A DNA stretch of 37,202 nt, taken from Thermodesulfobacteriota bacterium (GTDB lineage Bacteria > DASVDK01). The translations under genes and the position numbers were made by a program. Positions 931-35,923 of this stretch are shown piece by piece. Where the stretch lies: positions 1-37,202 of the forward strand of contig DASVDK010000273.1 of NCBI GenBank assembly GCA_036381125.1. Direction: 5' to 3'. Positions within the stretch are counted from its first letter, which is position 1, and every line of letters begins with the position of its first letter. The notes under the pieces are model-generated. The model ran no database searches, was not told where the DNA came from, and saw nothing but the letters and a program-made list of their open reading frames with translations.

Positions 931-2202
<1,272 letters not shown>

Positions 2203-2283
2203 TCGACCGGGCACCGCGCAGTCGGGCCAGGACCCCTCTTCCCCTTCGCCCGCCGGCTCGCTACCCTTGCCCGCCGCGAGCCG

Positions 2284-2387
2284 GTGCGAATTTTGTCACC
2301 GACGCGCACGTTTTGCGTGCGCGCGGCCCGACTCCCGGCGGCGCATGCCTGCAATACCACGAGAATCCCGGCGGCACGGCGGTTGCT
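2284..2387 (+). promoter_or_regulatory. Putative sigma54 (-24/-12) promoter with upstream activator-like palindromes
   Basis: CGGCACGGCGGTTGCT at 2372-2387 fits GG-N10-GC / GGCAC-N5-TTGC. Imperfect palindromes GTGCGAATTTTGTCAC (2284-2299) and GCGCACGTTTTGCGTGCGC (about 2304-2322) lie upstream at enhancer-like distance. Confidence 0.6.
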
Positions 2388-2468
2388 TTCCGGCGGAGCC
2401 GACGGCCCGGCGCGACGCTGGCCGGGCGTGCCGCCGCCGGCGGGGTCGCGCGAAGGGAGGCATCGAGG

Positions 2469-3200
2469 ATGGTCGCTCGGGTGCTGCTCGTCACAGTCGT
2501 GCTCCTCGGAGTGCTGGGGAGCCAGGCGCGAGCGGACGACGTGTCGGTCCGGGACCTCACGCAGGAGCAGTTCCGCGAGCTGTCCACCGAGGTGGGACTC
2601 GCCATCACGCCCTACCAGCTCCGGCCGGCCGAGGGCCTCGGCTTCCCCGGCTTCGACCTCGGCGCCGAGGTGACGGCCGTCGAGATCAACAGGAGCCGGA
2701 GCTACTGGCAGGCCGCGGTCGACGACCCGGACGACCTCCCGTCCTTCCTGCCGGTCCCCAAGCTGCACGCCAACGTCGGCCTGCCGCTCGGGATCGACCT
2801 CGGCGGCTACTACGGCGCCGTGCCCGGCTCGAACATCCGCCTCTACGGCGGGGAGGTGAAGTGGGCCATCCTCCGCGGCGGCGTCGTCTGGCCGGCCCTC
2901 GCGGTGCGGGGCGCCTACACGGAGCTGGCCGGCGTGGACGACCTGGACCTCAACACCAGGTCGCTCGACGCGTCGCTCAGCAAGGGCTTCGGGCCCCTCA
3001 CCCCCTACGTCGGCGCCGGTCGGGTCTGGATGGAGGCCGAGCCCAGGCAGGCCGCGGCCGCCGTCCTCGAGCGCGAGACGGAGCAGGAGGACCGGGTCTT
3101 CGTCGGCCTCAGGCTCCGGGTGCTCTTCGTCTCGGCGGTGGCCGAGGCGAGCTTCGCGAAGGTGCCGGCCTACACGCTGCGGCTGAACGTCAGCTTCTAG
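2469..3200 (+). CDS. Outer-membrane beta-barrel protein of unknown function (DUF6588-like)
   Basis: ATG at 2469 after GGGAGG; signal peptide ending ARA-D; amphipathic strands; C-terminal YTLRLNVSF beta-signal ending in Phe. Confidence 0.75.
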
Positions 3201-3215
3201 GAGCCACCATCGATC

Positions 3216-4493
3216 ATGTCCGACGCCGCATCGCGAGAGCCCGGGCAGCCGACCAGGTCCCGTCCCTGCCGCCGCCGCTGTGTCGCGTGCGGCCGCCCGT
3301 CCGCCGAGGTCCGCCGCCTCGTGTCGAACGAACGGTCGCGCATCTGCACCGACTGCCTCGACGCGTTCAACGCCGCGGTCCTCGTGGCCGACCAGCCCCA
3401 GACCGAGTCGTCCCGCCGCGAGCTGCCGACGCCGGCCCGCATCAAGGCCATTCTCGACGACTACGTGATCGGCCAGGAGAAGGCCAAGAAGATCCTCTCC
3501 GTGGCGGTCTACAACCACTACAAGAAGATCGAGTCGAACGCGGTCAACCGCGACGTCGAGCTCAAGAAGTCGAACATCCTCCTCCTCGGGCCCACCGGCA
3601 CCGGCAAGACGCTCCTGGCCCAGGTGCTGGCGCGGGTGCTGCGCGTGCCGTTCGCGATGGCCGACGCCACGGCCCTCACCGAGGCGGGCTACGTCGGCGA
3701 GGACGTGGAGAACATCCTCCTCAACCTCGTCATGGCGGCCGACTACAACATCGAGCGGGCCCAGAAGGGGATCGTCTACATCGACGAGATCGACAAGATC
3801 GCCCGCAAGAGCGAGAACCCCTCCATCACCCGCGACGTCTCGGGCGAGGGGGTGCAGCAGGCCCTCCTCAAGATCATCGAGGGCACCGTCGCCAACGTCC
3901 CGGTCACGGGGGGGCGCAAGCACCCGCAGGAGGAGGTCATCCGGGTCGACACCACGAACATCCTCTTCATCTGCGGGGGGGCCTTCGACGGCCTCGAGAC
4001 GATCATCGAGCGGCGCCTGGCCACCCGTGGGGCGATCGGGTTCGGCGCCGAGACAGCGCCCAGGACCAGGCGGGACGGCTCGCTCATGCCGCTCGTCCAG
4101 CCGGAGGACCTCTTCAAGTACGGCATGATCCCGGAGTTCGTCGGCCGGCTCCCGGTGACGACCGTCCTCCACGAGCTGGACGAGGAGGCACTCGTTCGCA
4201 TCCTCAAGGAGCCGAAGAACGCGCTGGTCAAGCAGTATCAACGCCTCTTCAAGCTCGACGGGGTGAGCCTCGAGTTCACGGACGCGTCGCTGCGGGCGGT
4301 GGCGCGCGAGGCGATCCGCCGCCGCGCCGGGGCCCGCGGCCTCTCGGCCATCCTCGAGGAGGCGATGCTCGACCTGATGTACGACCTGCCGTCGCGCCGC
4401 GACGTCAAGGGCTGCCGCATCGACGAGGCGGTCGTCCTCGGGCAGGGGACGCCGGAGTTCACCTACCGGGCCCGCAGGCGCAGGACGGCGTAA
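3216..4493 (+). CDS. clpX: ATP-dependent Clp protease ATP-binding subunit ClpX (paralog 2)
   Basis: CVAC...CTDC zinc finger, [43 protein letters not shown] loop; AGGAG upstream. Confidence 0.95.
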
Positions 4494-8895: not shown

Positions 8896-8901
8896 CGTCA
8901 G

Positions 8902-8951
8902 GGGGTCAGGTCTTTCCATTTTCCAGACCGGCAAACGTTGGGGCCTGACCC
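8902..8951. repeat. REP-like 25-bp unit (family A) between convergent genes
   Basis: 8902-8926 GGGGTCAGGTCTTTCCATTTTCCAG is the exact reverse complement of 22376-22400; a partial inverted copy (GGCCTGACCC) follows at about 8942-8951. Confidence 0.8.
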
Positions 8952-8987
8952 GACTCGTTTGCCGGCGCGTCGGCCGGGCGCCGCACG

Positions 8988-10013: not shown

Positions 10014-10077
10014 GCGCTTGCCGCCGGCGGGCAGCGTCTCGCGAGCCACCACGTCGAAGGGAGAGGAGAAGAGGCGC
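10014..10077 (-). pseudogene. Remnant copy of part of the 10842-11252 gene
   Basis: 64-nt direct repeat of 11067-11130 with 5 mismatches; encodes RLFSSPFDVVARETLPAGGKR. Confidence 0.7.
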
Positions 10078-10474
10078 CGCCTGCCGCAGTCAGGCGTCGC
10101 CGAAACGAGCCCCGGAATGCGGCAGGGTGCGGCGTGGGGTACCCGCGGTGTCTGGGGCCGACCGCGAGGTTTGGAATGGCAGTTGAGGCATCCAGTACCG
10201 CATCAAGCTCGCCGTCTGTCGAGAGTCAGACGAAGTGGCCTGTCAAGGGCCTTTTTCGTTTGCGAGCCAGTCGACGAAGCGACCATAGTCCAGGCCAATA
10301 GGCACGTTTGGGCAGGGTGCGGCCGGTGGGGCAATGGCGAAGGGCCAGAAGGGCGAGTCGCAGCCAGGCGTAGCGCTTGAGATCATCGGGCCGCGAGCTT
10401 CAGAAGAAGATCGATCCTGGACGTAGTTCCAGCAATTCGACACCTAGAGGGACAACGCGACCTGGGGACAAGCC

Positions 10475-10672
10475 ATGGCGGCAGCCACAGAAGCAGCTGC
10501 GGCGATCCACTTCGCGCTCGTGCTTTTCCTGCTCTGGGTGCTCATCTTCTGGATGTGGCCGAGCCTACGGCTGGATATGGGACAGATTTCGTTTCCGAAG
10601 CACGCTCCCGGCAGCCACGCCTCCGCTCGGCCGCCCCGTGCCGCACGCCGCGACGCCCGGAACGGCCCTTGA
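10475..10672 (+). CDS. Short hypothetical membrane peptide or gene fragment in a lower-GC patch
   Basis: One strong TM segment (IHFALVLFLLWVLIFWMW); atypical codon usage; GGGGA upstream. Confidence 0.3.
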   Translation: MAAATEAAAAIHFALVLFLLWVLIFWMWPSLRLDMGQISFPKHAPGSHASARPPRAARRDARNGP

Positions 10673-10841
10673 TGGCGGTATGGCGTCCGGCTCAACTTGG
10701 CCGCCCTGCACGAGGAGGCGTCGCCCCACCCGTCCGAGGCGGGGAGCCGCTGGTGCTGGCAGGGCTACGAGCGGCGCGAGGACCGGCGGGACCTCGGCCG
10801 CGGGTGGGGTGGCGCCGGGGAACAAGGCCGTTCCCGCGCCA

Positions 10842-11252
10842 TCAGAAAGGCGGGCCGTCCCAGCCCTTGGCGCGGTCCTCCATCTCGAAGGTCTGGAAGG
10901 CGCGGTTGAAGGAGCCGGCGCTCTCCTCCTGATGGAGGCGCCAGACCTCGTGCAGGCGGATCTCGACGGTCAGGTGGGTGCCGGGCGCGAGGCGGACGAC
11001 CTCCCTGGCGGCAGGGCCGAGCCTCCCCTTCAGGCGAATGCCGTACTCGCCGGGGGGGAGCGCGAAGCGCTTGCCGCCGGCGGGCAGCGTCTCGCGCGCC
11101 ACCAGGTCGAAGGGCGACGAGAACAGGCGCAGCTCCGCGGCGGGCAGGTGAAAGAGCCCGCTGGTGAAGCGGATGGTGAGCCCCTCGTGGCCGGGCGGCG
11201 CCGGCGCCTCGGTGACCGCGATCGTGGGGCGTTCGTCCGTGGCGATGGTCAT
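10842..11252 (-). CDS. Hypothetical protein (beta-rich)
   Basis: High GC3; 6 nt downstream of the previous gene; the synonymous-biased remnant copy at 10014-10077 supports this reading frame. Confidence 0.72.
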   Translation of the reverse strand: MTIATDERPTIAVTEAPAPPGHEGLTIRFTSGLFHLPAAELRLFSSPFDLVARETLPAGGKRFALPPGEYGIRLKGRLGPAAREVVRLAPGTHLTVEIRLHEVWRLHQEESAGSFNRAFQTFEMEDRAKGWDGPPF

Positions 11253-11258
11253 GGCGCG

Positions 11259-11801
11259 CTACCCCGCCTGCGCCACGCTCCACCGCGTCGGCGGCGGCAG
11301 CGGTAGGCCCTTCGCCTTGCGCTCGCGGATGGGCCCGCTGTGGCCCAGCGCCTTCACCGCGGCGATGTCGGCCTTCACCCGGTCGGCGAGCGCGGGGTAG
11401 CCGAAGCCGCGCAGGAGGCGCTCCGCCTCGGTGAGCCCGATGTTGTCCACCGCGCGAGCCGACTCGACCCAGAGCACGGCGGCCCGGGCGGCCGCCATGG
11501 CGCGTGGGTGCGTCACGAAGCGGCGCGCCTCGGCGACGAGGTCCCGGTACGACTCGACCGCGACCGCCTTCGCGCCGACACGCTCCACCTCCGCGGTGAA
11601 CCGGTCGAAGAAGGCGGCGGTCCAGAGGCGCTCGTCGGCGAGGACCCGCCTTGCCGTCTCGTTGCCCGCCTTCGCGCGCAGGACGAGCCGCGCGGCGTCG
11701 AGCCGCTCGCCGGCCGTCTTCGCCGCCCGCATCCGCGCGAGGGCCGACCTGAGATCCGGGGGGCCGAACCAGGCGTCCGCGATCTCGCTCCAGACTCCCA
11801 T
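11259..11801 (-). CDS. Hypothetical protein (helical)
   Basis: GGGAGG RBS, high GC3, tight operon spacing. Confidence 0.72.
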   Translation of the reverse strand: MGVWSEIADAWFGPPDLRSALARMRAAKTAGERLDAARLVLRAKAGNETARRVLADERLWTAAFFDRFTAEVERVGAKAVAVESYRDLVAEARRFVTHPRAMAAARAAVLWVESARAVDNIGLTEAERLLRGFGYPALADRVKADIAAVKALGHSGPIRERKAKGLPLPPPTRWSVAQAG

Positions 11802-11811
11802 GCCGGCCTCC

Positions 11812-12204
11812 CTACGCCCCCGCGCCGGCGCGGCTCGCCACGACGACGACGAGGAGGGCGAAGCCGATGACCTGGAGGCCGAGGAGCGCCGCCTGGGCGC
11901 CGACCTGATGGGCGAGGACGCGCCGCTTGGCCTTGCTCATGCCGAAGGCGACCACGTAGACCACCAGGGCCGCCACGACGAGGAGCCCGATCGTCCCGCC
12001 GAGAACGCCCCCGGTGAAGCCGGCGAGGGCGAGGAGGGCGAGCAGCAGGGTGCCTCCGAGCGTGGCGTAGTGCGCGGCCGCCTGGTAGCTGCCGTCGTAG
12101 ATCATGGTCACCTGGCCCTTGACGGTGTAGGCGGCCACCAGGGCGAGGCTCACCAGGAAGACCCCCGGCACGAGCGCCAGCAGGAACGCGAACAGACTCT
12201 CCAT
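11812..12204 (-). CDS. Hypothetical membrane protein (about 4 TM helices)
   Basis: Four hydrophobic segments; GGAGGA RBS; 16 nt after the FrhB-like stop. Confidence 0.75.
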   Translation of the reverse strand: MESLFAFLLALVPGVFLVSLALVAAYTVKGQVTMIYDGSYQAAAHYATLGGTLLLALLALAGFTGGVLGGTIGLLVVAALVVYVVAFGMSKAKRRVLAHQVGAQAALLGLQVIGFALLVVVVASRAGAGA

Positions 12205-12220
12205 CTCTCGGATCCTCCGC

Positions 12221-13393
12221 CTACGACCGGATGACGACGGGAAGCCCGGCCGCCTTCATGGCCGTCTCCCGCTCGGCGCCGCGCTCCTTCTTGAAGAGCA
12301 CGGCGAGCTGGAACTCCTGCTCGGCGCTGATGACCGGCAGGCGGGTGACCGCCTTGAGCCCCCAGCCGAGCGCCTTGAGGGTGAGGTCGGTTGCGTCCAT
12401 GGGGGCGCCGCTCATCGGGACCCTCTGGGGGTCGGCGAGGAGCCCCTTCTCGGCGGCCATCCGGAAGAGCCGCTGCCCGGCCTCGGACCGGAGGATCACC
12501 GAGAAGCGCCCGGCCCCGGCCCCGAGGCGGCCGAAGCTGATGTCGGCCAGCTCGGCGGTGGGGTCGACGCAGGTGATGCAGGCGTCGGGCGCGTAGTGCG
12601 AGACGACCGAGGCCGGCATCGTCTTCGTCTTCCCGCCGGTCGTCTCGACCCGGTAGAAGAGCGTGGAGTCGAGGCCGTGCCCGATGTGCCTCACCTCGTC
12701 GAGCGAGATGCCCACCCGCTCCCGGAGCATCGTCTCGAGCGCCTGCCGCCTCAGGACGCCGAAGCAGTAGTGCCCGATGATCAGCCCGATCTTCGACTCG
12801 AACTTCTTGTCGGGCATGTACTGCAGCTTGCGCCACGCCTCGGTGACGCACGGCGGCCCGATGAGCCCGACCCGGTCGAGGCCGTGGTAGTCCACCGCCT
12901 CGGTGAGGGCGGGCGTCACGTCGTCGAAGCCGATCAGCTCGTTCTCGCGCGCCTCGTTGAGGACGTCGATCCTGTGGAGGTCCTCGGGCCGGTCGACGAG
13001 CACGCCGGAGCGGTTGCCGAGCCGGTTGCGCCCCGTCCCGATGCCGACCCAGGCGCGCACCATCCCGGTCTCGAGGGCAAGGCGGGCGAGGGCGGCAATC
13101 TCGTTCTGCCGCACCGTCTGGACCTCCCGGTACCGACCGAAGACCGGGTCCTTCACGTCGACGCCCGGCTGCTCCGGACCGAAGACGAAGCTCTGCATGT
13201 CGGCCATCGGCAGGAAGTTCTTGGGGCAGGCGGTGAAGCAGGCGCCGCAGTCCCGGCAGGCCTGGAGCGGCCCGGGCCCGACGTTGTCCACCCACTCGAT
13301 GGCGTCGTACGAGCAGGACGCGAGGCAGGTCCCGCAGTGGCAGCAGAGGTCGTGCTCGACCTGCTGGAACAGCTCCTTCAGGCCAATGGCCAT
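12221..13393 (-). CDS. Coenzyme F420 hydrogenase/dehydrogenase beta-subunit (FrhB/FdhB) family protein with N-terminal 2x[4Fe-4S] ferredoxin domain
   Basis: CCHCGTCLASC and CRDCGACFTACP ferredoxin motifs; FrhB C-domain cysteines in GPPC, IGHYC and CITC.D.TAELADISFG. Confidence 0.82.
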   Translation of the reverse strand: MAIGLKELFQQVEHDLCCHCGTCLASCSYDAIEWVDNVGPGPLQACRDCGACFTACPKNFLPMADMQSFVFGPEQPGVDVKDPVFGRYREVQTVRQNEIAALARLALETGMVRAWVGIGTGRNRLGNRSGVLVDRPEDLHRIDVLNEARENELIGFDDVTPALTEAVDYHGLDRVGLIGPPCVTEAWRKLQYMPDKKFESKIGLIIGHYCFGVLRRQALETMLRERVGISLDEVRHIGHGLDSTLFYRVETTGGKTKTMPASVVSHYAPDACITCVDPTAELADISFGRLGAGAGRFSVILRSEAGQRLFRMAAEKGLLADPQRVPMSGAPMDATDLTLKALGWGLKAVTRLPVISAEQEFQLAVLFKKERGAERETAMKAAGLPVVIRS

Positions 13394-13477: not shown

Positions 13478-13529
13478 AATTGGTAGGACCAGTAGCGCCA
13501 GGTTAGGCCAGGTCCTGGAGGCTTGTCAA
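13478..13529 (-). promoter_or_regulatory. Sigma70 promoter of the FrhB-like operon with FadR-type operator
   Basis: Minus TTGACA (13529-13524), 18 nt, TAACCT (13505-13500). Operator AATTGGTAGGACCAGT at 13478-13493 lies at the predicted start site and matches the PdhR/LldR-type AATTGGT-N3-ACCAATT box. Confidence 0.72.
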
Positions 13530-13558
13530 GGGGCAACGGCGTGGAAGGACGGGACGGC

Positions 13559-14341
13559 GTGACCACGACAACACCGACAACATCTCGAACACCCGCGCAG
13601 CCCGAGCGCCGCGGAAAGGTGACCGAGGAGATCGTCCGCGCGATCCAGTCGCAGATCAGTCGCGGCGAGCTGAAGCCGGGCGACCAGCTCCCGCCCGAGC
13701 GGCAGCTCGCGAGCCGCTTCCACGCGAGCCGGGGCTCGATCCGCGAGGCGCTGCGCGCGCTCGAGCTGTCGGGGCTCATCCACTCCCGCCAGGGGGGCGG
13801 CAACTACGTCGCCAGGAGCCTGCCGTCCGCGCTCACCGTGCCCCTCGGCCACTACCTCGAGCGGCAGCGGCACGCGCTCGTGGACCTCTACGAGGCGCGC
13901 GAGATGCTCGAGCCGCGGCTCGCCTTCCTCGCCGCCGAGCGGGCCACGCGGGAGGACATCGAGCGGCTGCGCCAGGCGCTCGAGCGCCAGGAGCGGGACC
14001 TCGACAGCCACGACGCCGCCACCGCGTACGACGCCGATCGGGCCTTCCACCAGGCCATCGCCGAGGCGGCCGGCAACCAGACCTTCATCAAGCTGCACAA
14101 CTACCTCTCGGACCTCGTCTCCGAGAGCCGCCGCGAAGCGGTCGACAGCGCCTCGCGGCGGGAGCAGGCGGTCGTCGACCACCGCCACATCTTCGAGGCG
14201 ATCGCCGGCGGGGACGGCCCCGCGGCGTCGGCGGCCATGCTGCAGCACCTCAAGACGGTCAAGGAGATCCTCGTCGACGCGCTGACCGCCTACCAGCAGG
14301 CGCTGGCCCGACTGCCGGGCGCGCCGACCGAGCAGGGCTGA
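13559..14341 (+). CDS. GntR family transcriptional regulator, FadR subfamily (PdhR/LldR/GlcC-like)
   Basis: wHTH GELKPGDQLPPERQLA..F..SRGSIREAL..LE..GLI.SRQGGGNYV; FCD domain with EAREMLE, DRAFHQAIAEAAGN and DHRHIFEAI; GTG start at 13559. Confidence 0.93.
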   Translation: MTTTTPTTSRTPAQPERRGKVTEEIVRAIQSQISRGELKPGDQLPPERQLASRFHASRGSIREALRALELSGLIHSRQGGGNYVARSLPSALTVPLGHYLERQRHALVDLYEAREMLEPRLAFLAAERATREDIERLRQALERQERDLDSHDAATAYDADRAFHQAIAEAAGNQTFIKLHNYLSDLVSESRREAVDSASRREQAVVDHRHIFEAIAGGDGPAASAAMLQHLKTVKEILVDALTAYQQALARLPGAPTEQG

Positions 14342-14434: not shown

Positions 14435-14503
14435 TTGACAGGTTTGCCGCGAGGGCACTAGAGTAGCCGCATATTGGACCAATAGCGTATTGGTCCAACC
14501 ATT
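14435..14503 (+). promoter_or_regulatory. Sigma70 promoter of the oxidoreductase operon with FadR-type operator
   Basis: TTGACA 14435-14440, 18 nt, TAGAGT 14459-14464. TATTGGTCCAACCATT (TGGT-N3-ACCA) at 14488-14503 overlaps the inverted repeat TTGGACCAATA-GCG-TATTGGTCCAA (14474-14498). Confidence 0.75.
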
Positions 14504-14518: not shown

Positions 14519-15151
14519 ATGCAGGAACCGGAGATCCTCGAGATCAACGTCTGGACGCGGGGCGTCGTGATGGACAAGGAGGGGCGCGACGTCACGTTCG
14601 CCCTGGCCCGCGCCGCCCAGGAGGAGGGGAAGTTCGTCCAGGCGTTCGACAACTACGTCGACCAGCCCGACCGGGTGAACGTCCCCATGCGCAAGTACGC
14701 GCGGATCTCCGCCGTGGAGATCGAGGACAAGTACGTCTACGAGAACCACGAGCCGAACATCGTCGTCCTGGTCGAGGAGAGCCTCCTCAAGGGCATGAAC
14801 GTGCTGCGCGGCATGCGCCCCGGCGGCACGCTGATCGTCAACAGCCACCGCCCGATCGCCGACCTCGTCAAGTTCCTGCCGCCGCACGCGCCCGGGACGC
14901 TGCGCAGCTTCGCCGTGATCCACGCGGAGCGCTTCGCCAGGCGCGTCATGGCCGACTTCCTCGGCGCCGAGGGGGCGAGCGTCCGGGGCGGCCTCGGCAG
15001 GGGGATCGCCGGCCCGATCATCGGCGCCACGGCGCGCGTCGGCGGCTTCGTGTCGCTCGACGCGGTCAGGAAGGTCGTGTCCGACCCCGCGGCGGCCGAG
15101 CGCGGGTGGGAGTCGGTCCAGATCCGCGAACTGGGCGCTGCGACCGTCTAG
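14519..15151 (+). CDS. 2-oxoacid:ferredoxin oxidoreductase gamma-type subunit, equivalent to the N-terminal part of the oxalate oxidoreductase delta subunit
   Basis: VWTRGVVMDK..RD, NYVDQPDRV.VP, KYVYEN, VLVEESLLKG and GIAGPIIGA closely follow my recollection of Moorella OOR delta; lacks the GRGGQG loop of CoA-dependent PorC. Confidence 0.85.
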   Translation: MQEPEILEINVWTRGVVMDKEGRDVTFALARAAQEEGKFVQAFDNYVDQPDRVNVPMRKYARISAVEIEDKYVYENHEPNIVVLVEESLLKGMNVLRGMRPGGTLIVNSHRPIADLVKFLPPHAPGTLRSFAVIHAERFARRVMADFLGAEGASVRGGLGRGIAGPIIGATARVGGFVSLDAVRKVVSDPAAAERGWESVQIRELGAATV

Positions 15152-15239
15152 GGCGCGCCGACCGAACCAGGCAGTCCGGCCGGCACGGCCGCGCCGGCTG
15201 CGGAGATGGCACGGTCGGCAGAGCTGTCACGAGGTCACG

Positions 15240-15593
15240 ATGCCGTACGCCTACACGCCGAAGCTCATCCACATCCCGCCCGAGAAGGACGTGCCGTTCG
15301 GCATGATCGTGCCGGCCCCCGAGGTGAGCGGGGAGCAGCCGGGCATGATCACCGGCAACTGGCGGCAGAAGCGGCCGGTGTTCGACCCGATGCGCTGCAC
15401 GCAGTGCCGCTCGTGCGAGATGCTCTGCCCGGACGCCTGCATCTCGATCGACGAGAAGGGGATCGTCGATTCCGACATGAAGTACTGCAAGGGCTGCGGC
15501 GTCTGCGCCTTCGAGTGTCGCGAGGGGGCCATCGTGATGGTCCCAGAACTCGACTTCGAGGACGGCGTCGTCCGTCTGGAGACCGTCTTCTAG
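15240..15593 (+). CDS. 2x[4Fe-4S] ferredoxin-like delta subunit of the oxidoreductase
   Basis: TGNWR..RP, CTQCRSCEMLCPD, YCKGCGVCAFEC, VPELDFED; GAGG RBS. Confidence 0.9.
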   Translation: MPYAYTPKLIHIPPEKDVPFGMIVPAPEVSGEQPGMITGNWRQKRPVFDPMRCTQCRSCEMLCPDACISIDEKGIVDSDMKYCKGCGVCAFECREGAIVMVPELDFEDGVVRLETVF

Positions 15594-15610
15594 GAGCCGG
15601 GAGCACGCCG

Positions 15611-18104
<2,494 letters not shown>

Positions 18105-18207: not shown

Positions 18208-18786
18208 ATGCTTGCGGGCTGCCGCCACATCTGCGTTGCCTGGGCCGCCATCGGGCTCCTGGCGCTCGCCACCGGCCTCGCGGCAGAGCAGGGCGATCTC
18301 GTGCGCGTCGGCGCCTTCGCCCTGCTGGCCTTCGGCACGCTCCGCCTCGCCATGGCGAGCGACGACTTCGAGGCGATCGGCGCCCGGCTCGCGGCGCGCC
18401 CGGCCGAGGCGCCGCCGAAGCCCGCCGTCCCGCGCGCCTTCTGGTCGCGCCCGGCGCCCTACGTCCTGCTGCCCCTCATCGGGTTCATCGTGCTCGTGGG
18501 CCGCGTCCTCTGGCGGCCTCCCCTCGGCAACGACGCCCGTTACCTGATCACCGGCATCATGGCGGCCGCGCTCACCGTCACGGTCGTCTACCTCGTCCTC
18601 CTCGCCGTCGAGGGGGCGCACGTCGCCGCGGCCGCGCCCGCCCAGGGGGCGCTCGAGGACCCCGCGCCGCCCGGTCCACGCGTACAGGGCGACGAGGGGC
18701 TTTCCGCCATCGGCGCCCTCGACACCGCCCGGTTCACGCGCGACGTGCTCGACGTCCACGGCCAGGGCGGCGCCCCTCGCCCCTGA
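18208..18786 (+). CDS. Hypothetical membrane protein (about 4 TM helices)
   Basis: GGAGGA RBS, four hydrophobic segments, high GC3. Confidence 0.65.
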   Translation: MLAGCRHICVAWAAIGLLALATGLAAEQGDLVRVGAFALLAFGTLRLAMASDDFEAIGARLAARPAEAPPKPAVPRAFWSRPAPYVLLPLIGFIVLVGRVLWRPPLGNDARYLITGIMAAALTVTVVYLVLLAVEGAHVAAAAPAQGALEDPAPPGPRVQGDEGLSAIGALDTARFTRDVLDVHGQGGAPRP

Positions 18787-18808: not shown

Positions 18809-18823
18809 AACTGGTCGGACCAC
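18809..18823. promoter_or_regulatory. Distal FadR-type operator candidate
   Basis: AACTGGTCGGACCAC (TGGT-N3-ACCA) in the intergenic region upstream of tctC. Confidence 0.5.
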
Positions 18824-19025: not shown

Positions 19026-19069
19026 TTGACACACCCCTGGGTGCGTCGCACAGTCGTGGTAGGACCAGT
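19026..19069 (+). promoter_or_regulatory. Promoter of the tctCBA operon with FadR-type operator
   Basis: TTGACA 19026-19031, 17 nt, CACAGT 19049-19054, AT-rich sequence upstream. TGGTAGGACCAGT at 19057-19069 is identical to 13481-13493. Confidence 0.7.
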
Positions 19070-19218
19070 GGGGCAGGGGCCTACGCCCAATCGCCGGCAC
19101 CTCGTCGTCCGGCCGCAATAAATCATTGTCATGCGCCGTCTTACGACCATCCTGCGGCGCGGACGGGTTCACCCCGGCCGGCGTCACGGTATGTTGAAAC
19201 ACCGTTAGGAGGTCTGCT

Positions 19219-20205
19219 ATGGCACGTCTCCGGGGTCAGGTGGTCGCGGCAATGCTCGCGTCCGCGTTCGTCCTGGCGCCCTTCGCGGCGCACGCGGCGT
19301 GGGAGCCGCAGAAGCCCATCGAGTTCATCATCCCGGCGGGGACGGGCGGCGGCGCGGACCAGATGGCCCGCCTCATCACCGGCATCGCCGAGAAGTACAA
19401 CCTCTCGCCGCGGCCCGTCGTGGCCATCAACAAATCGGGCGGCGCCGGCGCCGAGGGCTTCCTCTACGTCAAGGGCAAGAAGGGGGATGCCCACACCATC
19501 ATCATCACCCTGTCGAACCTCTTCACGACCCCCCTCAGCACCGGCGTTCCCTTCAACTGGAAGGACCTCACCCCGGTCGCCCGCCTGGCGCTCGACGAGT
19601 TCATCCTCTGGGTCAACGCGAGCACGCCCTACAAGAGCGCCAGGGAGTACATCACCGCGGTCAAGGAGAAGGGCCCCATGAAGATGGGGGGCACCGGCAC
19701 GGCGCAGGAGGATCAGATCATCACGCTCCTGCTCCAGCAGCGGACCGGCGCCAAGTTCACCTACGTGCCGTTCAAGGGGGGCGGCGAGGTCTGCGTGAAC
19801 CTCGTCGGCGGCCACGTCGACTCGACCGTCAACAACCCCATCGAGTGCGTGAGCCACTGGCGCGCGAACCCCTCGCGCGTGCGGCCGCTCGCCATCTTCG
19901 ACGAGGAGCGCAGCCAGGTCGGGGGCTGGACGGAGATCCCGACCATCAAGGAGGCGCTCGGGGCGGACATCAGCTACCTGATGCTCCGCGGCATCTTCGG
20001 ACCGCCCGACATGCCGAAGGAGGCCACGGAGTGGTACCAGGCCTTCCTGAAGAAGGTCATGGAGACGACCGAGTGGAAGGACTTCATGACCAAGGGGGCC
20101 TTCAAGCAGTCGTGGCTCACCGGCCCCGAGTTCGTGAAGTGGCTCGAGCAGACGGAGGCGCTCCACCGCGAGTTGATGGAGGCGGGAGGCCTGCTCAAGA
20201 AGTAG
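19219..20205 (+). CDS. tctC: Tripartite tricarboxylate transporter substrate-binding protein (TctC/Bug)
   Basis: Signal peptide ending AHA-A; P.KPIEFIIPAGTGGGAD..AR, NKSGGAG, YVPFKGGGE, GGHVD; AGGAGG RBS. Confidence 0.93.
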   Translation: MARLRGQVVAAMLASAFVLAPFAAHAAWEPQKPIEFIIPAGTGGGADQMARLITGIAEKYNLSPRPVVAINKSGGAGAEGFLYVKGKKGDAHTIIITLSNLFTTPLSTGVPFNWKDLTPVARLALDEFILWVNASTPYKSAREYITAVKEKGPMKMGGTGTAQEDQIITLLLQQRTGAKFTYVPFKGGGEVCVNLVGGHVDSTVNNPIECVSHWRANPSRVRPLAIFDEERSQVGGWTEIPTIKEALGADISYLMLRGIFGPPDMPKEATEWYQAFLKKVMETTEWKDFMTKGAFKQSWLTGPEFVKWLEQTEALHRELMEAGGLLKK

Positions 20206-20214
20206 CCCCACACC

Positions 20215-20252
20215 CCGCGCGCGGCGATGCCTCCGAGCGTCGCCGCGCGCGG
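20215..20252 (+). other. Strong 16-bp stem-loop between tctC and tctB (mRNA-stabilising or attenuating hairpin)
   Basis: CCGCGCGCGGCGATGC-CTCCGA-GCGTCGCCGCGCGCGG with one G-U pair and no U-tract. Confidence 0.6.
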
Positions 20253-20278
20253 ATCGTCGTCACCTGCCGGGGGGCCTC

Positions 20279-20740
20279 ATGCGGAAGGCGGATCTCGTCA
20301 CGGCGACCATCCTGCTGATCCTGGCCGCCGTCGTCGTCTGGGACTCCTACGAGCTGGGCATCGCATGGGGGCCCGGGGGGCCGGGCAGCGGGTTCTTCCC
20401 CTTCTGGATGGGGCTCATCATGATCGGCTGCTGCCTGGGGATCATCGCCCAGGCGCTGCGCCGGCCCGAGGGGAAGCCGTTCATCGCCCGCGAGGGGATC
20501 GCCCCGGTCCTCAAGGTCCTCGGGCCGGCGGTCGGCTTCGTGGTCCTCATCCAGTTCGTCGGCCTCTACGTGTCGGCCGCCGTCTACCTCGCCGTCTACA
20601 TGCGCTGGATCGGACGCCATTCCTGGCCCACCGTGGCCGGGGTGGCGCTCGCCTTCGCCGTGATCGCCTTCTTCGTCTTCGAGACCTGGTTCCTGGTGCC
20701 GATGCCCAAGGGCCCGGTCGAGTCGTGGCTGGGGTACTAG
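20279..20740 (+). CDS. tctB: Tripartite tricarboxylate transporter small permease TctB
   Basis: GPGSGFFPFW motif, 4 TM helices, VPMPKGP C-terminal motif. Confidence 0.9.
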   Translation: MRKADLVTATILLILAAVVVWDSYELGIAWGPGGPGSGFFPFWMGLIMIGCCLGIIAQALRRPEGKPFIAREGIAPVLKVLGPAVGFVVLIQFVGLYVSAAVYLAVYMRWIGRHSWPTVAGVALAFAVIAFFVFETWFLVPMPKGPVESWLGY

Positions 20741-20743
20741 ATC

Positions 20744-22264
20744 GTGGGATTCGAGAACCTGCTGCTCGGCTTCGAGGTCGCGCTTCATCCCTACAACCTC
20801 CTCATCGCCGCCGCCGGGATCGTCCTCGGTGTCATCGTGGGGGTGCTGCCGGGCCTCGGCGGCGCCAACGGCGTGGCGATCCTCCTGCCGCTCACGTTCT
20901 CGATGGAGCCGACCTCGGCCATCATCCTCCTGAGCTGCCTCTACTGGGGCGCCCTCTTCGGGGGCGCCATCACGTCGATCCTCTTCAACATCCCGGGCGA
21001 GCCCTGGTCGGTCGCCACGACCTTCGACGGCCACCCGATGGCCCGCAACGGTCAGGGAGGCCAGGCGCTCACCGCCGCCTTCTCCTCGTCGTTCATCGGC
21101 GCCTTCGCGGCGGTCGTCGTCATCACGTTCTTCGCGCCGCTCCTCGCCGATCTGGCCCTCAAGTTCGGGCCGGCCGAGTTCTTCGCCATCCAGTTCCTGA
21201 CGTTCTCGGCCTTCGTCGGACTCGGCGGCGGAAGCCCCCTCAAGACCCTCGTGGCCATCATGATCGGCTTCATCCTCGGCTCGGTCGGCCTCGACATGGT
21301 GACCGGCCGGCTGCGGCTCACGTTCGGCTTCACCGACCTCATGAAGGGGTTCGACTTCATCGTGGCCGTGATCGGCCTCTTCGGCATCGGCGAGATCCTC
21401 CTCACGATGGAGGAGGGGCTCTCCTTCCGCGGGGCGATCGCGAAGATCAGCCCGACCGTCGTCTGGCAGACCTGGAAGACCTTCCCCCGCTACGCCCGCA
21501 CGTTCGCGCGGGGGGCCTTCATCGGCTTCTGGATGGGCTTCAAGCCGGGCGGCGCCACGCCGGCCTCCTTCATGAGCTACGCCTTCGCCAAGCGCTTCTC
21601 GAAGCATCCGGAGCGCTTCGGCAAGGGGGAGATCGAGGGGGTGATCGCCCCCGAGACGGCGGCCCACGCCGCCGGTACGGCGGCGCTCCTGCCGATGATC
21701 ACGCTCGGCATCCCGGGCTCGCCGACCGCGGCGGTCATGCTCGGCGGCCTCATCATCTGGGGCCTCCAGCCGGGGCCGATGCTCTTCGTCGACCAGCCGC
21801 ACTTCGTCTGGGGCCTCATCGCGAGCATGTACACCGGGAACGTCATCGGCGTCCTCATGGTGCTCGCCTTCGTCCCCTTCTTCGCCTCGATCCTCAAGAT
21901 CCCCTTCGCCATCCTCACGCCGCTCATCGTGTCGATCTGCGCCATCGGGGCCTACTCCGTGCACAACAGCATGATCGACATCTGGTTCATGCTCGTCTTC
22001 GGCGTCGTGGGCTACGTCTTCAAGAAGCTCGACTACCCGCTCGCACCGCTCGTCCTCGCCCTGGTCCTCGGGGACATGGCCGAGGCCGCCCTGCGCCAGA
22101 GCCTCATCATGTCGGGCGGCTCGATCGGCATCTTCTTCACGCGGCCCATCTCCGGGACGATCATGTGGTTCGCGCTGTTCCTCTTCGCGATGCCGGTGAT
22201 CGGCCCCTGGTGGCGGAAGCTCAGAGGGAAGCCGGCCGCGAGCCTGCCGTCCGTCCCGCACTGA
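20744..22264 (+). CDS. tctA: Tripartite tricarboxylate transporter large permease TctA
   Basis: GVLPGLG, SILFNIPG, TTFDGHPMA, APETA, TLGIPGS, PLVLALVLG. Confidence 0.95.
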   Translation: MGFENLLLGFEVALHPYNLLIAAAGIVLGVIVGVLPGLGGANGVAILLPLTFSMEPTSAIILLSCLYWGALFGGAITSILFNIPGEPWSVATTFDGHPMARNGQGGQALTAAFSSSFIGAFAAVVVITFFAPLLADLALKFGPAEFFAIQFLTFSAFVGLGGGSPLKTLVAIMIGFILGSVGLDMVTGRLRLTFGFTDLMKGFDFIVAVIGLFGIGEILLTMEEGLSFRGAIAKISPTVVWQTWKTFPRYARTFARGAFIGFWMGFKPGGATPASFMSYAFAKRFSKHPERFGKGEIEGVIAPETAAHAAGTAALLPMITLGIPGSPTAAVMLGGLIIWGLQPGPMLFVDQPHFVWGLIASMYTGNVIGVLMVLAFVPFFASILKIPFAILTPLIVSICAIGAYSVHNSMIDIWFMLVFGVVGYVFKKLDYPLAPLVLALVLGDMAEAALRQSLIMSGGSIGIFFTRPISGTIMWFALFLFAMPVIGPWWRKLRGKPAASLPSVPH

Positions 22265-22325: not shown

Positions 22326-22400
22326 CTGGAAAACGGAAAGGCCTGACCCCCTGGAAAACGGAAAGACCTGACCCCCTGGAAAATGGAAAGACCTGACCCC
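22326..22400. repeat. Tandem array of three 25-bp REP-like units (family A)
   Basis: CTGGAAAAYGGAAAGRCCTGACCCC at 22326, 22351 and 22376, head-to-tail with no spacers. Confidence 0.9.
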
Positions 22401-31477: not shown

Positions 31478-32176
31478 TCAGTGGCCGAAGGGGGGGCGGC
31501 CGTGGAAGTCGCCGTCGAGGCGCACGGTGGCCGCGGCGAGCGACCGCCCCTGGACGCGCAGGGCCGCCGAGAGGCTGTGCACGCCTCGGGCGCGGAGCAG
31601 TGGGACGAGGCGCATGTAGATGCGGCCGGCGATGACGGCGTCGCCCCGCGCCGTGTGCCGGCCGTCGCACGGTACCTCGAGCCGCGCCGCCAGCTCCTCG
31701 AGGGAGAGGCCGGCCCAGTGGGGCGACAACGCCCGCGCGAGCCCGGCCACGTCGAGGGCCGGGACGGTGAGCGCCGGCAGGCGCAACCGGCGCGCGAGGC
31801 GGTTCAGGATCGAGAGGTCGAAGCCGAGAGCGAACCCGACGAGCGGCGCGAAGGCGCCGCACGCGGCGGAGAGGGCCGGGAGCACCGTCTCGAACGGCGG
31901 CGCGCCGGCCACGTGCCCGTCGTCGATCCCGTGGATCCGCGTGGCGGTGAGCGGGATGGGCCGACCCGGGCGGACGAGGCTCTCGTACCCCCGCTCGGGC
32001 CGGGGGTCGCCGTCCTCGAAGGGAATGGCGGCGACGGAAACCGGCTCGTCGCGGCGGGTGTCGAGCCCGGTCGTCTCGATGTCGAGGGCGCAGAAGCGGC
32101 CGGTCGGGAGCGGCCCGGGTGGAGAGTTGCCCGCCCCCCCGAAGGGCCAGATCCGTCCGATCCAGGGCCGCGTCAT
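31478..32176 (-). CDS. DnaQ-like 3'-5' exonuclease domain protein
   Basis: DEDDh motifs ALDIETTG, FDL, HTARGDA; IHGI. Confidence 0.88.
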   Translation of the reverse strand: MTRPWIGRIWPFGGAGNSPPGPLPTGRFCALDIETTGLDTRRDEPVSVAAIPFEDGDPRPERGYESLVRPGRPIPLTATRIHGIDDGHVAGAPPFETVLPALSAACGAFAPLVGFALGFDLSILNRLARRLRLPALTVPALDVAGLARALSPHWAGLSLEELAARLEVPCDGRHTARGDAVIAGRIYMRLVPLLRARGVHSLSAALRVQGRSLAAATVRLDGDFHGRPPFGH

Positions 32177-33687: not shown

Positions 33688-33754
33688 GCGGCGCCCGTTC
33701 CGAGCGGAGACGCGCGGGCGGGGCGCCGGCCCCGCCCGCGCAGGCGCCTTCGGC

Positions 33755-33832
33755 CTAGCGGCCGAAGACGACGAGCATGAAGACGACGGTGAAGAGGATC
33801 GATCCGACCAGCCAGTAGTCTTCGCGTGCCAT
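33755..33832 (-). CDS. 25-aa single-TM membrane peptide (not in the ORF track)
   Basis: MAREDYWLVGSILFTVVFMLVVFGR; GGAGG RBS; high GC3; 15 nt after the SSS transporter stop. Confidence 0.7.
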   Translation of the reverse strand: MAREDYWLVGSILFTVVFMLVVFGR

Positions 33833-33847
33833 GCGTGAACCCTCCGT

Positions 33848-35671: not shown

Positions 35672-35923
35672 TCCCACCTCCGTAGGTCAGGGAGAATGAC
35701 GCCGGCGTAGCCGTGGACGACCGCCTGCACGCGACGATGGATGGATGGTGAACGACCGGCGGGGTCCCGGTCCATGCCGTCAGGTCGCTCGGTCCCCTGG
35801 GTGGCGTTTCGTGTTGCGAGCGGCCTGTCCTTACAGCTTCGCATGCTAGACCCGGCAGGGTAGGGGCGCAATGCGCGGCATGGCTCGCTCGGCACTGCCG
35901 GCAACCGCTCGGAAGGGTTTCGC

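Follow-up and report, generated by a model that had tools for sequence, protein, structure and literature searches.

The window, by which we mean the whole 37,202-nt stretch of DNA analysed, carries on its minus strand four open reading frames (ORFs) separated by gaps of 16, 10 and 6 nt, exactly the layout described in an earlier reading of the DNA (the sequence-only reading). The first encodes a 390-aa FrhB-family Fe–S protein (12221..13393), assigned from Pfam, alignments, an AF2 model and Foldseek. It is followed by the genes for a 130-aa membrane protein with four predicted transmembrane (TM) helices (4-TM protein; 11812..12204), a 180-aa all-helical, TPR-like protein (11259..11801) and a 136-aa protein predicted to be a beta-sandwich (10842..11252). 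GC3 is 0.95–0.98 in all four genes; RBS-like GGAGGA/GGGAGG sequences lie upstream of the 4-TM and helical genes, and G-rich stretches only upstream of the other two. Divergently, on the plus strand, lie genes for a GntR-family regulator with an FCD domain (FadR subfamily; 13523..14341, start codon uncertain), an oxalate oxidoreductase (OOR)-like 2-oxoacid:ferredoxin oxidoreductase (14519..18104), a 192-aa membrane protein of no known family situated between OOR beta and tctC (18208..18786), and a TctC, TctB, TctA tripartite carboxylate transporter (19198..22264). Scans of the whole window with Rfam at the gathering threshold and for tRNAs returned nothing.

The FrhB-like protein is laid out as an N-terminal 2×[4Fe-4S] ferredoxin domain, a degenerate N-domain, a four-Cys C-domain and a two-helix C-terminal tail. 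Pfam FrhB_FdhB_C (PF04432) matches residues 173–319 (86.6 bits; cut-off 23.3), as it matches all members of our 60-sequence alignment, and a genome-wide search found no other PF04432 gene. Fer4 dicluster models match residues 12–66, where both ferredoxin motifs are complete (C17-x2-C20-x2-C23-x3-C27 and C46-x2-C49-x2-C52-x3-C56). The FrhB-type cluster cysteines C182, C210, C272 and C275 are present as well; C182 and C210 align to FrhB Cys104 and Cys134, and C272 and C275 to the FrhB CxxC motif. Cys134 is given as a cluster ligand in the structural report on FrhB (PMC3930138). All three cluster sites are intact, and Pfam and the alignment bear out the two ferredoxin-type clusters and FrhB cysteines noted earlier. 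Nine of the 12 cluster cysteines are invariant in the 60-sequence alignment, C182, C210 and C275 among them; the other three, C46, C49 and C272, reach 90% or more (98% for C272), and the eight subfamily members have all 12 without exception.

The AF2 model (pLDDT 90.6) has the FrhB fold, including the N-domain core. When the FrhB-like model was compared by Foldseek, as the sequence-only reading had suggested, all 14 matches listed (of 21 at E ≤ 0.001) were FrhB-family chains, FrhB and HCAR (5dqr) included, the top match being 8riu_B (E 2.2e-23, TMq 0.72). The C-terminal extension remarked on in that reading is real with respect to FrhB proper, and K368 within it is conserved in 92% of 52 distant relatives; but because ferredoxin-domain-bearing relatives likewise extend beyond the core, the tail is not a distinguishing feature.

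The N-domain is where the flavin of the family would be bound. FrhB_FdhB_N (PF04422) gave no match to the FrhB-like protein even at E ≤ 10; it matched 52 of the 60 alignment members, namely all 52 distant relatives and none of the eight subfamily members. MAFFT and hhalign (probability 100%, E 1e-53) agree on a 12-residue gap opposite the relatives' ...QDGG, whose second G is present in every one of the 52 distant relatives, and on the placement of NEARENELIGFDD opposite the relatives' AG[ST][KR]Y. The G-[ST]-K-Y loop is replaced by NELIGFDD, and its Y, 94% conserved in the distant relatives, is E or A in the subfamily. In the AF2 model, strand 90–95 joins helix 97–108 directly, without an intervening loop. 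As described in the structural report (PMC3930138), 24-QDGG wraps the FAD pyrophosphate in solved FrhB, and the loop A72–N81, including G73–T77, holds the adenine. The FAD-contacting loops are lost: of the two segments that the sequence-only reading took to be replaced, one is deleted and the other replaced. Pfam, the two alignment methods and the published role of the loops together support the loss or alteration of the canonical site. Where a column is conserved in 60% or more of the 52 distant relatives, the subfamily retains the residue at 16 of 21 positions (ferredoxin domain) and 29 of 44 (C-domain), but at only 7 of 28 in the N-domain.

The protein could still be a two-electron reductase whose remodelled N-domain binds flavin, another cofactor or a substrate in a non-canonical way and reduces a soluble metabolite, like HCAR and BciB. 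It retains the FrhB fold with the N-domain core and has HCAR as a structural neighbour (E 5.5e-16), and the former flavin loops hold new subfamily-invariant residues (His208, Tyr209, His239, Arg113 and Trp115) that could form a different flavin or cofactor site despite the loop loss. We judge this unlikely all the same: the pyrophosphate-wrapping loop is excised and not merely substituted, 20 of the 28 family-conserved N-domain positions are changed in all eight members, and the window holds no candidate substrate pathway besides oxalate/carboxylate uptake.

Seven homologues share 78–94% identity with the FrhB-like protein. At 50% identity the whole subfamily falls into a single cluster out of 1.84 billion representatives, and the next match is 31% identical; judged by this clustering it is an orphan, outside any characterised subfamily, and the prospect of placing it in one, which the sequence-only reading had left as a way of being wrong, came to nothing. 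Searches of genomes and metagenome contigs with the protein and the alignment found no close relative, just ferredoxin-domain matches (32–57% identity, residues 15–87). So narrow a distribution, together with the lost family-defining N-domain signature, might be expected of a decaying relic or pseudo-enzyme without redox function. We find this very improbable, given that the frame is open with a GC3 of 0.98, the 12 cysteines are invariant across members 78–94% identical to the query, the fold is confidently predicted, and 16 of the 23 strain differences listed inside the four ORFs fall at third codon positions (hand count).

None of the three small proteins matched Pfam or NCBIfam, and all three had likewise gone unrecognised in the sequence-only reading. 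The TM helices of the 4-TM protein are hydrophobic stretches counted by eye from the sequences. Its homologues are 67–92% identical, and the TM1–TM2 loop, VKGQVTMIYDGSYQAA.HYATLGG, is invariant bar one position (A44); the alignment contains one invariant His only and no recognisable quinone or haem motif. The helical protein (AF2 pLDDT 86.9) has eight homologues (65–91% identical) with a conserved C-terminal motif, GHSG.IR.R..KG.P.P.PT.WS. A VIA wide structure search with it reached a best Z of 7.9, to generic TPR-like helical repeats only, which is within the stated noise level for helical proteins, and these matches were set aside. Its identification as a TorD/NarJ-type chaperone or another known fold was also rejected (no Pfam match; Atlas TM all <0.5). 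For the beta-sandwich protein, the Atlas model has prealbumin/CarboxypepD_reg-like neighbours (TM by query 0.51–0.64); its 90% cluster has n = 2, and a 94% identical copy lies on a 14648-nt contig.

Homologues of the 4-TM protein were found on contigs of 14648, 8875, 15205 and 7322 nt, and those of the helical protein on contigs of 8875, 24187 and 7322 nt. The sizes 8875, 24187, 15205 and 7322 nt are the same as those recorded for the FrhB-like homologues P0002, P0005, P0004 and P0003. The sequence-only reading would have been refuted had the three small genes not been conserved with the FrhB-like gene; the 4-TM and helical genes are so conserved, on contigs of matching size, whereas a copy of the beta-rich gene was found no further away than the 94% strain. 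The 14648-nt Logan contig of that strain spans 10715–13008 at ~94% identity, and its sole two indels lie where one gene gives way to the next, on or adjacent to 11252 and 11813. Linkage of the operon to the OOR genes was checked among strains ~94% identical. In a same-genus genome (G001) the FrhB-like protein had no match, which we rejected as evidence that the operon is absent: on either side the orthologous flank stops at a contig end or close to one (contig C590 within the variable spacer, and the locus on C93 at OOR beta, 96% identical), so that the region is an assembly gap. From the operon structure and the predicted TM helices we infer that the four proteins may form a physical, membrane-associated complex; a complex prediction of four chains with the FrhB-like protein as partner gave 0.01 against a mark of 0.32, a run without controls that speaks neither for nor against binding.

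The OOR-like enzyme, recognised by NCBIfam and PDB 5c4i, is encoded by ORFs for a gamma-type domain (14519–15151), a ferredoxin (delta-type) subunit (15240–15593), alpha (15590–16834) and beta (16848–18104, start probably later). Alpha scores above its NCBIfam equivalog cut-off (NF045791, 542.2 bits against 500) and matches PDB 5c4i_A over its full length (E 1.8e-137, against 5e-59 for PFOR). The first ORF exceeds the cut-off of the delta model (NF045790, 242.4 bits against 230), and the second covers the C-part. Beta scores 475.8 bits against an equivalog cut-off of 590, so that specificity for oxalate, as predicted from these matches, is likely without being certain. Among the 33 window ORFs scanned, none showed a hydrogenase or formate dehydrogenase domain, as the sequence-only reading had remarked of the neighbourhood.

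The regulator combines a GntR helix–turn–helix domain (PF00392) with an FCD domain (PF07729), and its best NCBIfam matches, NanR, LldR and PdhR, are all below cut-off. The motif TGGTNNNACCA, which we take to be the generic FadR-subfamily operator consensus, occurs 16 times in the 4.33-Mb genome; four perfect sites lie in the window, all intergenic, where 0.13 are expected. The composite TTGACA-N(24-54)-TGGTNNNACCA occurs three times, against 0.00 expected, once each into the FrhB-like operon, the OOR genes and tctC. On the minus strand, towards the FrhB-like operon, a promoter-like TTGACA (13524–13529) is followed by the palindromic putative operator TGGTAGGACCA (13481–13491; composite 13481..13529). 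On the plus strand, promoter-like TTGACA-18-TAGAGT and then TGGTCCAACCA precede the OOR-like genes (14435..14501), and TTGACA and then TGGTAGGACCA precede tctC (19026..19067). The fourth perfect palindrome, TGGTCGGACCA, is intergenic (18812..18822, no strand assigned). This common architecture suggests that the FrhB-like, OOR and tct operons are co-regulated; the operator at 13481 could chiefly serve gntR autoregulation, though its TTGACA composite faces the other way. Six other genomic TGGTNNNACCA sites were inspected: four lie in GC-rich, coding-like sequence, one is ambiguous (C286, between divergent genes), and the last, C97:1669, looks genuine and sits beside unrelated genes for an EamA transporter and a CCG-domain protein. 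The C97:1669 site did not clarify the regulon. The OOR-like neighbour and the shared promoter/operator architecture, both absent from the sequence-only reading, give the operon a metabolic context.

The host is an uncultured soil bacterium with a 96% complete genome, from a phylum with two species genomes only in the collection searched. Eight COX1 matches above cut-off (haem-copper oxidases) mark the genome as that of a predicted aerobe. It contains no RnfD/NqrB family match, no NiFe hydrogenase above cut-off and, within its 96% completeness, no match to CofE (TIGR01916) of the F420 pathway; a CofH-like match scored 338.5 against a cut-off of 374.1. In such a setting the operon might encode an accessory, protective or maturation factor for an oxygen-sensitive OOR, for instance an electron sink through which the OOR clusters stay oxidised or are repaired, or an assembly scaffold. 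An OOR-like enzyme in an aerobic genome, the co-regulation with OOR, and the TPR-like helical protein, of a kind typical of adaptors, would all suit such a role. We nonetheless regard it as improbable, as no similarity to known maturation factors was found and three conserved clusters better fit sustained electron transfer.

Because the FrhB-like operon and the OOR genes share promoter/operator signals, the FrhB-like protein may carry OOR electrons away. We tentatively propose, as the best of the readings but short of an even chance, that it is a flavin-free three-cluster wire from OOR/ferredoxin to a membrane acceptor, probably a quinone, via the 4-TM protein. The FrhB-derived protein would then serve as an Fe–S electron wire and not as a flavin-dependent two-electron (hydride-transferring) enzyme. 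Low-potential electrons from the co-regulated OOR-like enzyme, arriving directly or via ferredoxin, would enter at the N-terminal 2×[4Fe-4S] domain, move on to the [4Fe-4S] cluster in the FrhB C-domain, and leave for an acceptor that occupies what was once the flavin pocket, now remodelled; this acceptor would most likely be a membrane quinone presented by the invariant 4-TM loop. The TPR-like and beta-sandwich proteins would be scaffold or accessory subunits, and the GntR/FCD protein would be a repressor with joint control over the FrhB-like operon, the OOR genes and the Tct carboxylate transporter. What we infer here is the identity of electron donor and acceptor, the formation of a physical complex and the attachment to the membrane.

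Much of this evidence would also suit a soluble, dedicated polyferredoxin: the FrhB-like protein would be OOR's private three-cluster acceptor or carrier, handing electrons to soluble partners, and the small genes would be merely co-transcribed, unrelated or accessory. Intact cluster sites, lost flavin loops, co-regulation with OOR and small proteins without redox motifs are all in its favour. Yet the 6–16-nt gaps argue for a functional unit, as does the fact that the 4-TM and helical genes are conserved together (65–92% identity, same-size contigs), and the invariance of the 4-TM loop suggests that it interacts specifically; we consider a soluble carrier possible but rather unlikely. The membrane wire, carried to its full extent, would be an undescribed respiratory module in which a flavin-free FrhB-derived protein, a haem-less 4-TM anchor and two scaffolds link a thiamine-dependent OOR directly to the quinone pool, a combination that we consider doubtful. 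If true, it would amount to an oxalate:quinone oxidoreductase system in an aerobe from a nearly unsampled phylum, and to the first FrhB-family member working without flavin. To our knowledge, characterised FrhB-family proteins use flavin as the switch between one- and two-electron chemistry. A conserved member with its clusters kept and its flavin loops excised would show this scaffold to be open to reuse, either purely as an electron wire or with a new cofactor. The locus also raises the question of how very low-potential oxalate electrons enter aerobic respiration where no Rnf was found, and it offers a defined candidate regulon with four promoter sites, comprising regulator, uptake, oxidation and electron outlet.

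Among known systems, FrhB of the F420-reducing [NiFe] hydrogenase shares the fold (PDB 4ci0, 4omf, 3zfs, 6qgr and 9r51; Foldseek E 4e-20 to 8e-19, TMt 0.77–0.80) and the four-Cys [4Fe-4S] site. FrhB is a hydrogenase beta subunit, whereas the window has no hydrogenase genes. According to the structural report (PMC3930138), FrhB lacks a fused ferredoxin domain, and its FAD is bound by 24-QDGG and G73–T77; the FrhB-like protein has neither loop. In the solved FrhB-family structures matched here, flavin is the switch between one-electron and two-electron chemistry. The best sequence and structure matches are the F420-reductase subunits of the CODH and formylmethanofuran dehydrogenase complexes of Ca. 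Ethanoperedens (8riu_B and 8rja_E; best phmmer E 1.6e-23), which have the same sequence of N-terminal 2×[4Fe-4S] domain, FrhB core and C-terminal tail. Identity to 8riu_B is 22% only, and its QNGG motif is missing from the FrhB-like protein; these subunits come from archaea and are described as F420-reducing in the titles of their entries, whereas no CofE was found in our host.

HCAR (5dqr) has the FrhB fold, and HCAR and BciB, which take ferredoxin and not F420 as donor, as we propose for the FrhB-like protein, are flavoproteins acting on chlorophyll intermediates. The present locus has no chlorophyll pathway context, and the FrhB-like protein resembles them less than it does the archaeal F420 reductases. 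The N-terminal half of the F420-dependent sulfite reductase Fsr (7np8, 7npa; Foldseek E ~3e-19) likewise fuses a ferredoxin domain to an FrhB-type domain, but Fsr binds FAD and carries a fused sirohaem sulfite reductase, neither of which is found in the FrhB-like protein. In Fsr, electrons are relayed from the FrhB-domain cluster to two ferredoxin-domain clusters, as set out in its description (PMC10229431).

OOR of Moorella thermoacetica (5c4i) shares with the OOR-like alpha an identical ten-residue stretch and YPIRPYT, stretches that presumably hold the oxalate-binding Arg residues and switch loop of OOR. In contrast, the window enzyme has two separate ORFs for the gamma/delta-type subunit that is a fusion in Moorella, its beta falls below cut-off and its host genome is aerobic by prediction; the only OOR known to have been characterised comes from a strict anaerobe. 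We know of no FrhB-like partner described for the Moorella enzyme, and our literature search found no paper joining oxalate oxidoreductase with FrhB (FrhB together with oxalate gave unrelated papers only).

FpoF/FqoF, the FrhB-family F420H2-oxidising input subunits of membrane quinone/phenazine reductases, are a precedent for a protein of this family that delivers electrons to such a reductase. They give the best full-length NCBIfam alignment (NF040616, residues 10–322, E 3.6e-25), with scores below both equivalog cut-offs (88.6 against 475 for NF040616; 85.2 against 444 for NF006808). In contrast to these systems, the window lacks Nuo/Fpo genes, the flavin loops are missing, and the 130-aa 4-TM protein is the sole putative membrane partner. 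For such an anchor, E. coli FrdC and FrdD offer a precedent: both are small, contain no haem and make up a quinone site next to an Fe–S cluster.

The FrhB-like protein, the 390-aa product of the first gene of a four-gene operon (12221–13393, minus strand), belongs to the FrhB superfamily on the strength of its fold, C-domain and cluster site, and departs from the FrhB family in its N-domain and FAD loops. In Pfam searches, FrhB_FdhB_C matched residues 173–319 (86.6 bits, cut-off 23.3) and 4Fe-4S dicluster models matched residues 12–66; FrhB_FdhB_N gave no match, even at E ≤ 10. The best NCBIfam matches were the FrhB and FpoF models, far under their cut-offs, and every equivalog cut-off was missed. 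Two ferredoxin-type clusters plus the FrhB cluster cysteines had been read from the sequence alone, and all 12 cysteines are there: two CxxCxxCxxxC motifs (C17/20/23/27 and C46/49/52/56), with C182, C210, C272 and C275. We aligned 60 sequences: the query with 7 close homologues, plus 52 distant relatives from an exhaustive search of representatives. Nine of the 12 cysteines never vary, and the other three (C46, C49 and C272) reach 90% conservation or more. In M. marburgensis FrhB the residues aligned to C182 and C210 are Cys104 and Cys134, the latter described as a ligand of the cluster adjoining FAD (PMC3930138).

The FAD of FrhB is described as enclosed by loops 23–30, 71–77 and 131–138, with the conserved 24-QDGG wrapped in extended form about the pyrophosphate; at the adenine lies loop A72–N81, which includes the highly conserved G73–T77 (PMC3930138). 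A Q/x-[DNSAG]-GG motif was present in all 22 distant relatives inspected and an A-G-[ST]-[KRC]-Y motif in all but two of them; across the 52 distant relatives, the second G of GG is 100% conserved and the Y of the G-[ST]-K-Y-type motif 94%. All eight members of the subfamily (the FrhB-like protein and its 7 close homologues) have a 12-residue gap at the QDGG position, between VRQNE and IAAL, and NEARENELIGFDD at the position of the A-G-[ST]-[KRC]-Y motif. Profile–profile alignment with hhalign agrees on the gap and the replaced loop (probability 100%, E 1e-53). PF04432 was found in 60 of 60 aligned sequences and PF04422 in 52, the eight without it being the subfamily. When we scored columns conserved in 60% or more of the 52 distant relatives, the subfamily kept 16 of 21 in the ferredoxin domain, 29 of 44 in the C-domain and 7 of 28 in the N-domain, where 20 were changed in all eight members. 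The sequence-only reading had both flavin segments as apparently replaced; the two alignments refine this to a deletion of the first and a replacement of the second.

An AF2 model (pLDDT 90.6, pTM 0.91) keeps the FrhB fold, and in it strand 90–95 leads straight into helix 97–108, so that no loop would be left for wrapping a pyrophosphate. The Foldseek comparison suggested along with the sequence-only reading returned the same fold: the 14 matches listed, of 21 at E ≤ 0.001, were all FrhB-family chains, with 8riu_B, a component of an F420-reducing CODH, listed first (E 2.2e-23, TMq 0.72), followed by 8rja_E, several FrhB entries, Fsr and HCAR. The C-terminal extension noted earlier (helices 334–350 and 357–381) does exceed the length of FrhB; ferredoxin-fused relatives likewise extend beyond the core, with K368 conserved in 92% of them, so the tail is no distinguishing mark. 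As all three cluster sites survive and the flavin loops have been cut out, the protein is most simply read as an electron wire, as opposed to an enzyme of flavin-dependent two-electron (hydride-transferring) chemistry. That it is a reductase whose cofactor site is non-canonical, set beside the retained fold on one side and the excised loops on the other, seems to us unlikely.

The clade is very narrow. A word-indexed search found 7 homologues at 78–94% identity and nothing else above 27%. Exhaustive search of 1.84 billion representatives gave 1199 matches at E ≤ 1e-3, including one close cluster only (P0001, 94%), the next match being 31% identical (E 7e-28). The gene is the sole PF04432 gene in its genome. 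The host phylum is represented in the collection searched by two species genomes of one genus, other relatives being related at domain level only. The second genome (G001) had no match to the FrhB-like protein; on either side of the locus, its orthologous flanking sequence breaks off where a contig ends or close to that point, so the missing gene reflects an assembly gap and not absence.

Three minus-strand genes follow, at spacings of 16, 10 and 6 nt as first read: a 4-TM protein (11812–12204, 130 aa), a helical protein (11259–11801, 180 aa) and a beta-rich protein (10842–11252, 136 aa). GC3 is 0.95–0.98 in all four ORFs, in a window of about 72% G+C; clear RBS-like sequences (GGAGGA/GGGAGG) precede the 4-TM and helical genes, and no minus-strand terminator-like site was found within the operon. 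The three small proteins had gone unrecognised, and Pfam and NCBIfam likewise give none of them a match. The 4-TM protein has four homologues (67–92% identity), and its TM1–TM2 loop, VKGQVTMIYDGSYQAA.HYATLGG, is invariant save one position (A44), H45 being the protein's sole invariant histidine. Judged by eye with the positive-inside rule, the KAKRR loop should be inside, from which we infer that the conserved loop is on the cytoplasmic side. The helical protein (8 homologues, 65–91% identity) is modelled as all-helical (pLDDT 86.9) and resembles generic TPR-like repeats only (best Z 7.9). Structural neighbours of the beta-rich protein in the Atlas are prealbumin- and CarboxypepD_reg-like (TM by query 0.51–0.64), and its 90% cluster has one other member, 94% identical.

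Co-conservation was judged from matching contig sizes recorded with each match. The contigs that carry FrhB-like homologues P0002, P0005, P0004 and P0003, which share 78–86% protein identity, measure 8875, 24187, 7322 and 15205 nt; helical homologues are on contigs of 8875, 24187 and 7322 nt, and 4-TM homologues on contigs of 14648, 8875, 15205 and 7322 nt. Conservation with the FrhB-like gene thus holds for the 4-TM and helical genes; for the beta-rich gene it could be followed only as far as a 94%-identical strain. Logan contigs from mangrove and soil metagenome runs cover 10715–13008 and 10715–12303 at about 94% identity, with two indels only, both placed where genes meet (at 11252 and 11813 or next to them); relatives at about 94% come from soil, sludge and mangrove habitats. 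Among the best-supported 40 of 639 differences, counted by hand, 23 are substitutions within the four ORFs, and 16 of these affect a third codon position (beta 7/8, helical 5/10, 4-TM 3/3, FrhB-like 1/2). Beside these counts and the conserved cysteines, a relic is highly improbable. That the protein is a private polyferredoxin in soluble form, the small genes being unrelated to it, would fit the cysteine motifs, and has to be set against the shared contig sizes; we find this rather doubtful.

Where the operon ends on its 3′ side, a 67-nt segment (10014–10080) duplicates, at 91% identity, part of the interior of the beta-sandwich gene (11067–11133) and lies precisely on the border of a lower-GC spacer (10018–10714), in whose place the 94%-identical strain has 749 unrelated letters. 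The spacer, which contains a plus-strand terminator-like hairpin (10237–10261) and a small hydrophobic ORF (10475–10672, plus strand), resembles the scar of a rearrangement or a hot spot for one. Elsewhere in the window, a 25-nt dispersed repeat, GGGGGTCAGGTCTTTCCATTTTCCAG (8899–8926; 22326–22400), occurs once after an M20 peptidase gene and, after tctA, as three tandem copies in reverse complement; the stretch around it (about 8899–8952) matches about two dozen G001 contigs. Tandem ClpX-like genes (790–2202 and 3201–4493; zf-C4_ClpX, AAA_2 and ClpB_D2-small) flank an ORF without a family match (2019–3200); the presence of ClpX genes marks the DNA as bacterial. A sodium:solute symporter gene (33848–35686) lies between two CBS–DUF294 nucleotidyltransferase genes within 32173–37201, with an RNase T-like exonuclease gene at 31478–32188.

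Divergent from the operon is a GntR/FCD regulator gene (13523–14341), followed by a four-ORF 2-oxoacid:ferredoxin oxidoreductase (14519–18104, plus strand), a membrane protein gene and TctCBA. The best match of the enzyme is oxalate oxidoreductase (OOR). Alpha scores 542.2 bits on the OOR model (equivalog cut-off 500) and the gamma-type ORF 242.4 on the delta model (cut-off 230), the ferredoxin ORF corresponding to that model's C-terminal part; beta, at 475.8, is below its cut-off of 590. Moorella-type OOR has a fused delta subunit, whereas two ORFs are present here (14519–15151 and 15240–15593). Among solved structures, alpha aligns end-to-end with Moorella OOR alpha (5c4i_A, E 1.8e-137, versus 5e-59 for PFOR). 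YPIRPYT and a 10-residue stretch, which we take to include the oxalate-binding arginines and switch loop, are identical between the two. A short repeated element between the alpha and beta genes (16840–16912; about ten G001 contigs at 74–89% identity) reaches into the 5′ portion of the beta ORF, which suggests that the called start of this ORF (16848) is too early. A paralogous GntR (82% DNA identity)–OFOR (66–68%) cluster occurs in G001 (C525), and a second OFOR alpha in the host genome (G000:C5:9660–10832) falls short of the OOR model's cut-off with 372.9 bits; no accompanying FrhB-like gene was found.

Four perfect TGGTNNNACCA palindromes, presumably a FadR/PdhR-type operator core, occur in the window (13481, 14491, 18812 and 19057), all intergenic; 0.13 were expected, none of 100 shuffles reached four, and the whole 4.33-Mb genome has only 16. 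TTGACA-N(24-54)-operator composites number three against 0.00 expected: one points into the FrhB-like operon (13529 to 13481, minus strand), one precedes the OOR genes (14435 to 14501, plus strand) and one precedes tctC (19026 to 19067, plus strand). Uptake, oxidation and the FrhB-like operon can therefore be read as one local regulon with putative operators. At least one further good operator-like site lies elsewhere in the genome: that at G000:C97 1669–1679 has extended identity to the 13481 site (AATTTGGTAGGACCAGT) and adjoins an EamA transporter gene and a CCG-domain (GlcF/LutA-like) gene, and may mark a further regulon member or a site of a paralogous regulator. We regard the anatomy and the regulon as solid; function is what we infer. 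An OOR protection or maturation factor would also suit co-regulation with the OOR-like genes, and, next to the 12 retained cluster cysteines, appears decidedly unlikely.

The genome has eight COX1 matches over the cut-off, and searches of it gave no RnfD/NqrB family match, no NiFe hydrogenase over the cut-off and no CofE, with a sub-threshold CofH-like match only; as it is 96% complete, the Rnf, hydrogenase and CofE negatives mean 'not found' and not 'absent'. An OOR-like enzyme in an apparent aerobe, with eight haem-copper oxidase matches and no Rnf match, is noteworthy in itself. The likely electron donor would be the co-regulated OOR-like enzyme or a ferredoxin reduced by it. In an aerobe with no Rnf found, the quinone pool would be the likely sink, reached via the 4-TM protein. 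Our tentative preference is that the FrhB-like protein is a wire carrying OOR or ferredoxin electrons to the quinone pool through the 4-TM protein. In the literature searched, no paper was found joining 'oxalate oxidoreductase' and 'FrhB', and the two papers with both 'FrhB' and 'oxalate' were, from their titles and abstracts, unrelated. For each half of the wire-to-quinone idea there is a precedent: FpoF/FqoF for one and the haem-less FrdCD anchors for the other. Fsr shares the domain arrangement itself, and there electrons are described as passing in relay between the cluster of the FrhB domain and the two clusters of the ferredoxin domain (PMC10229431).
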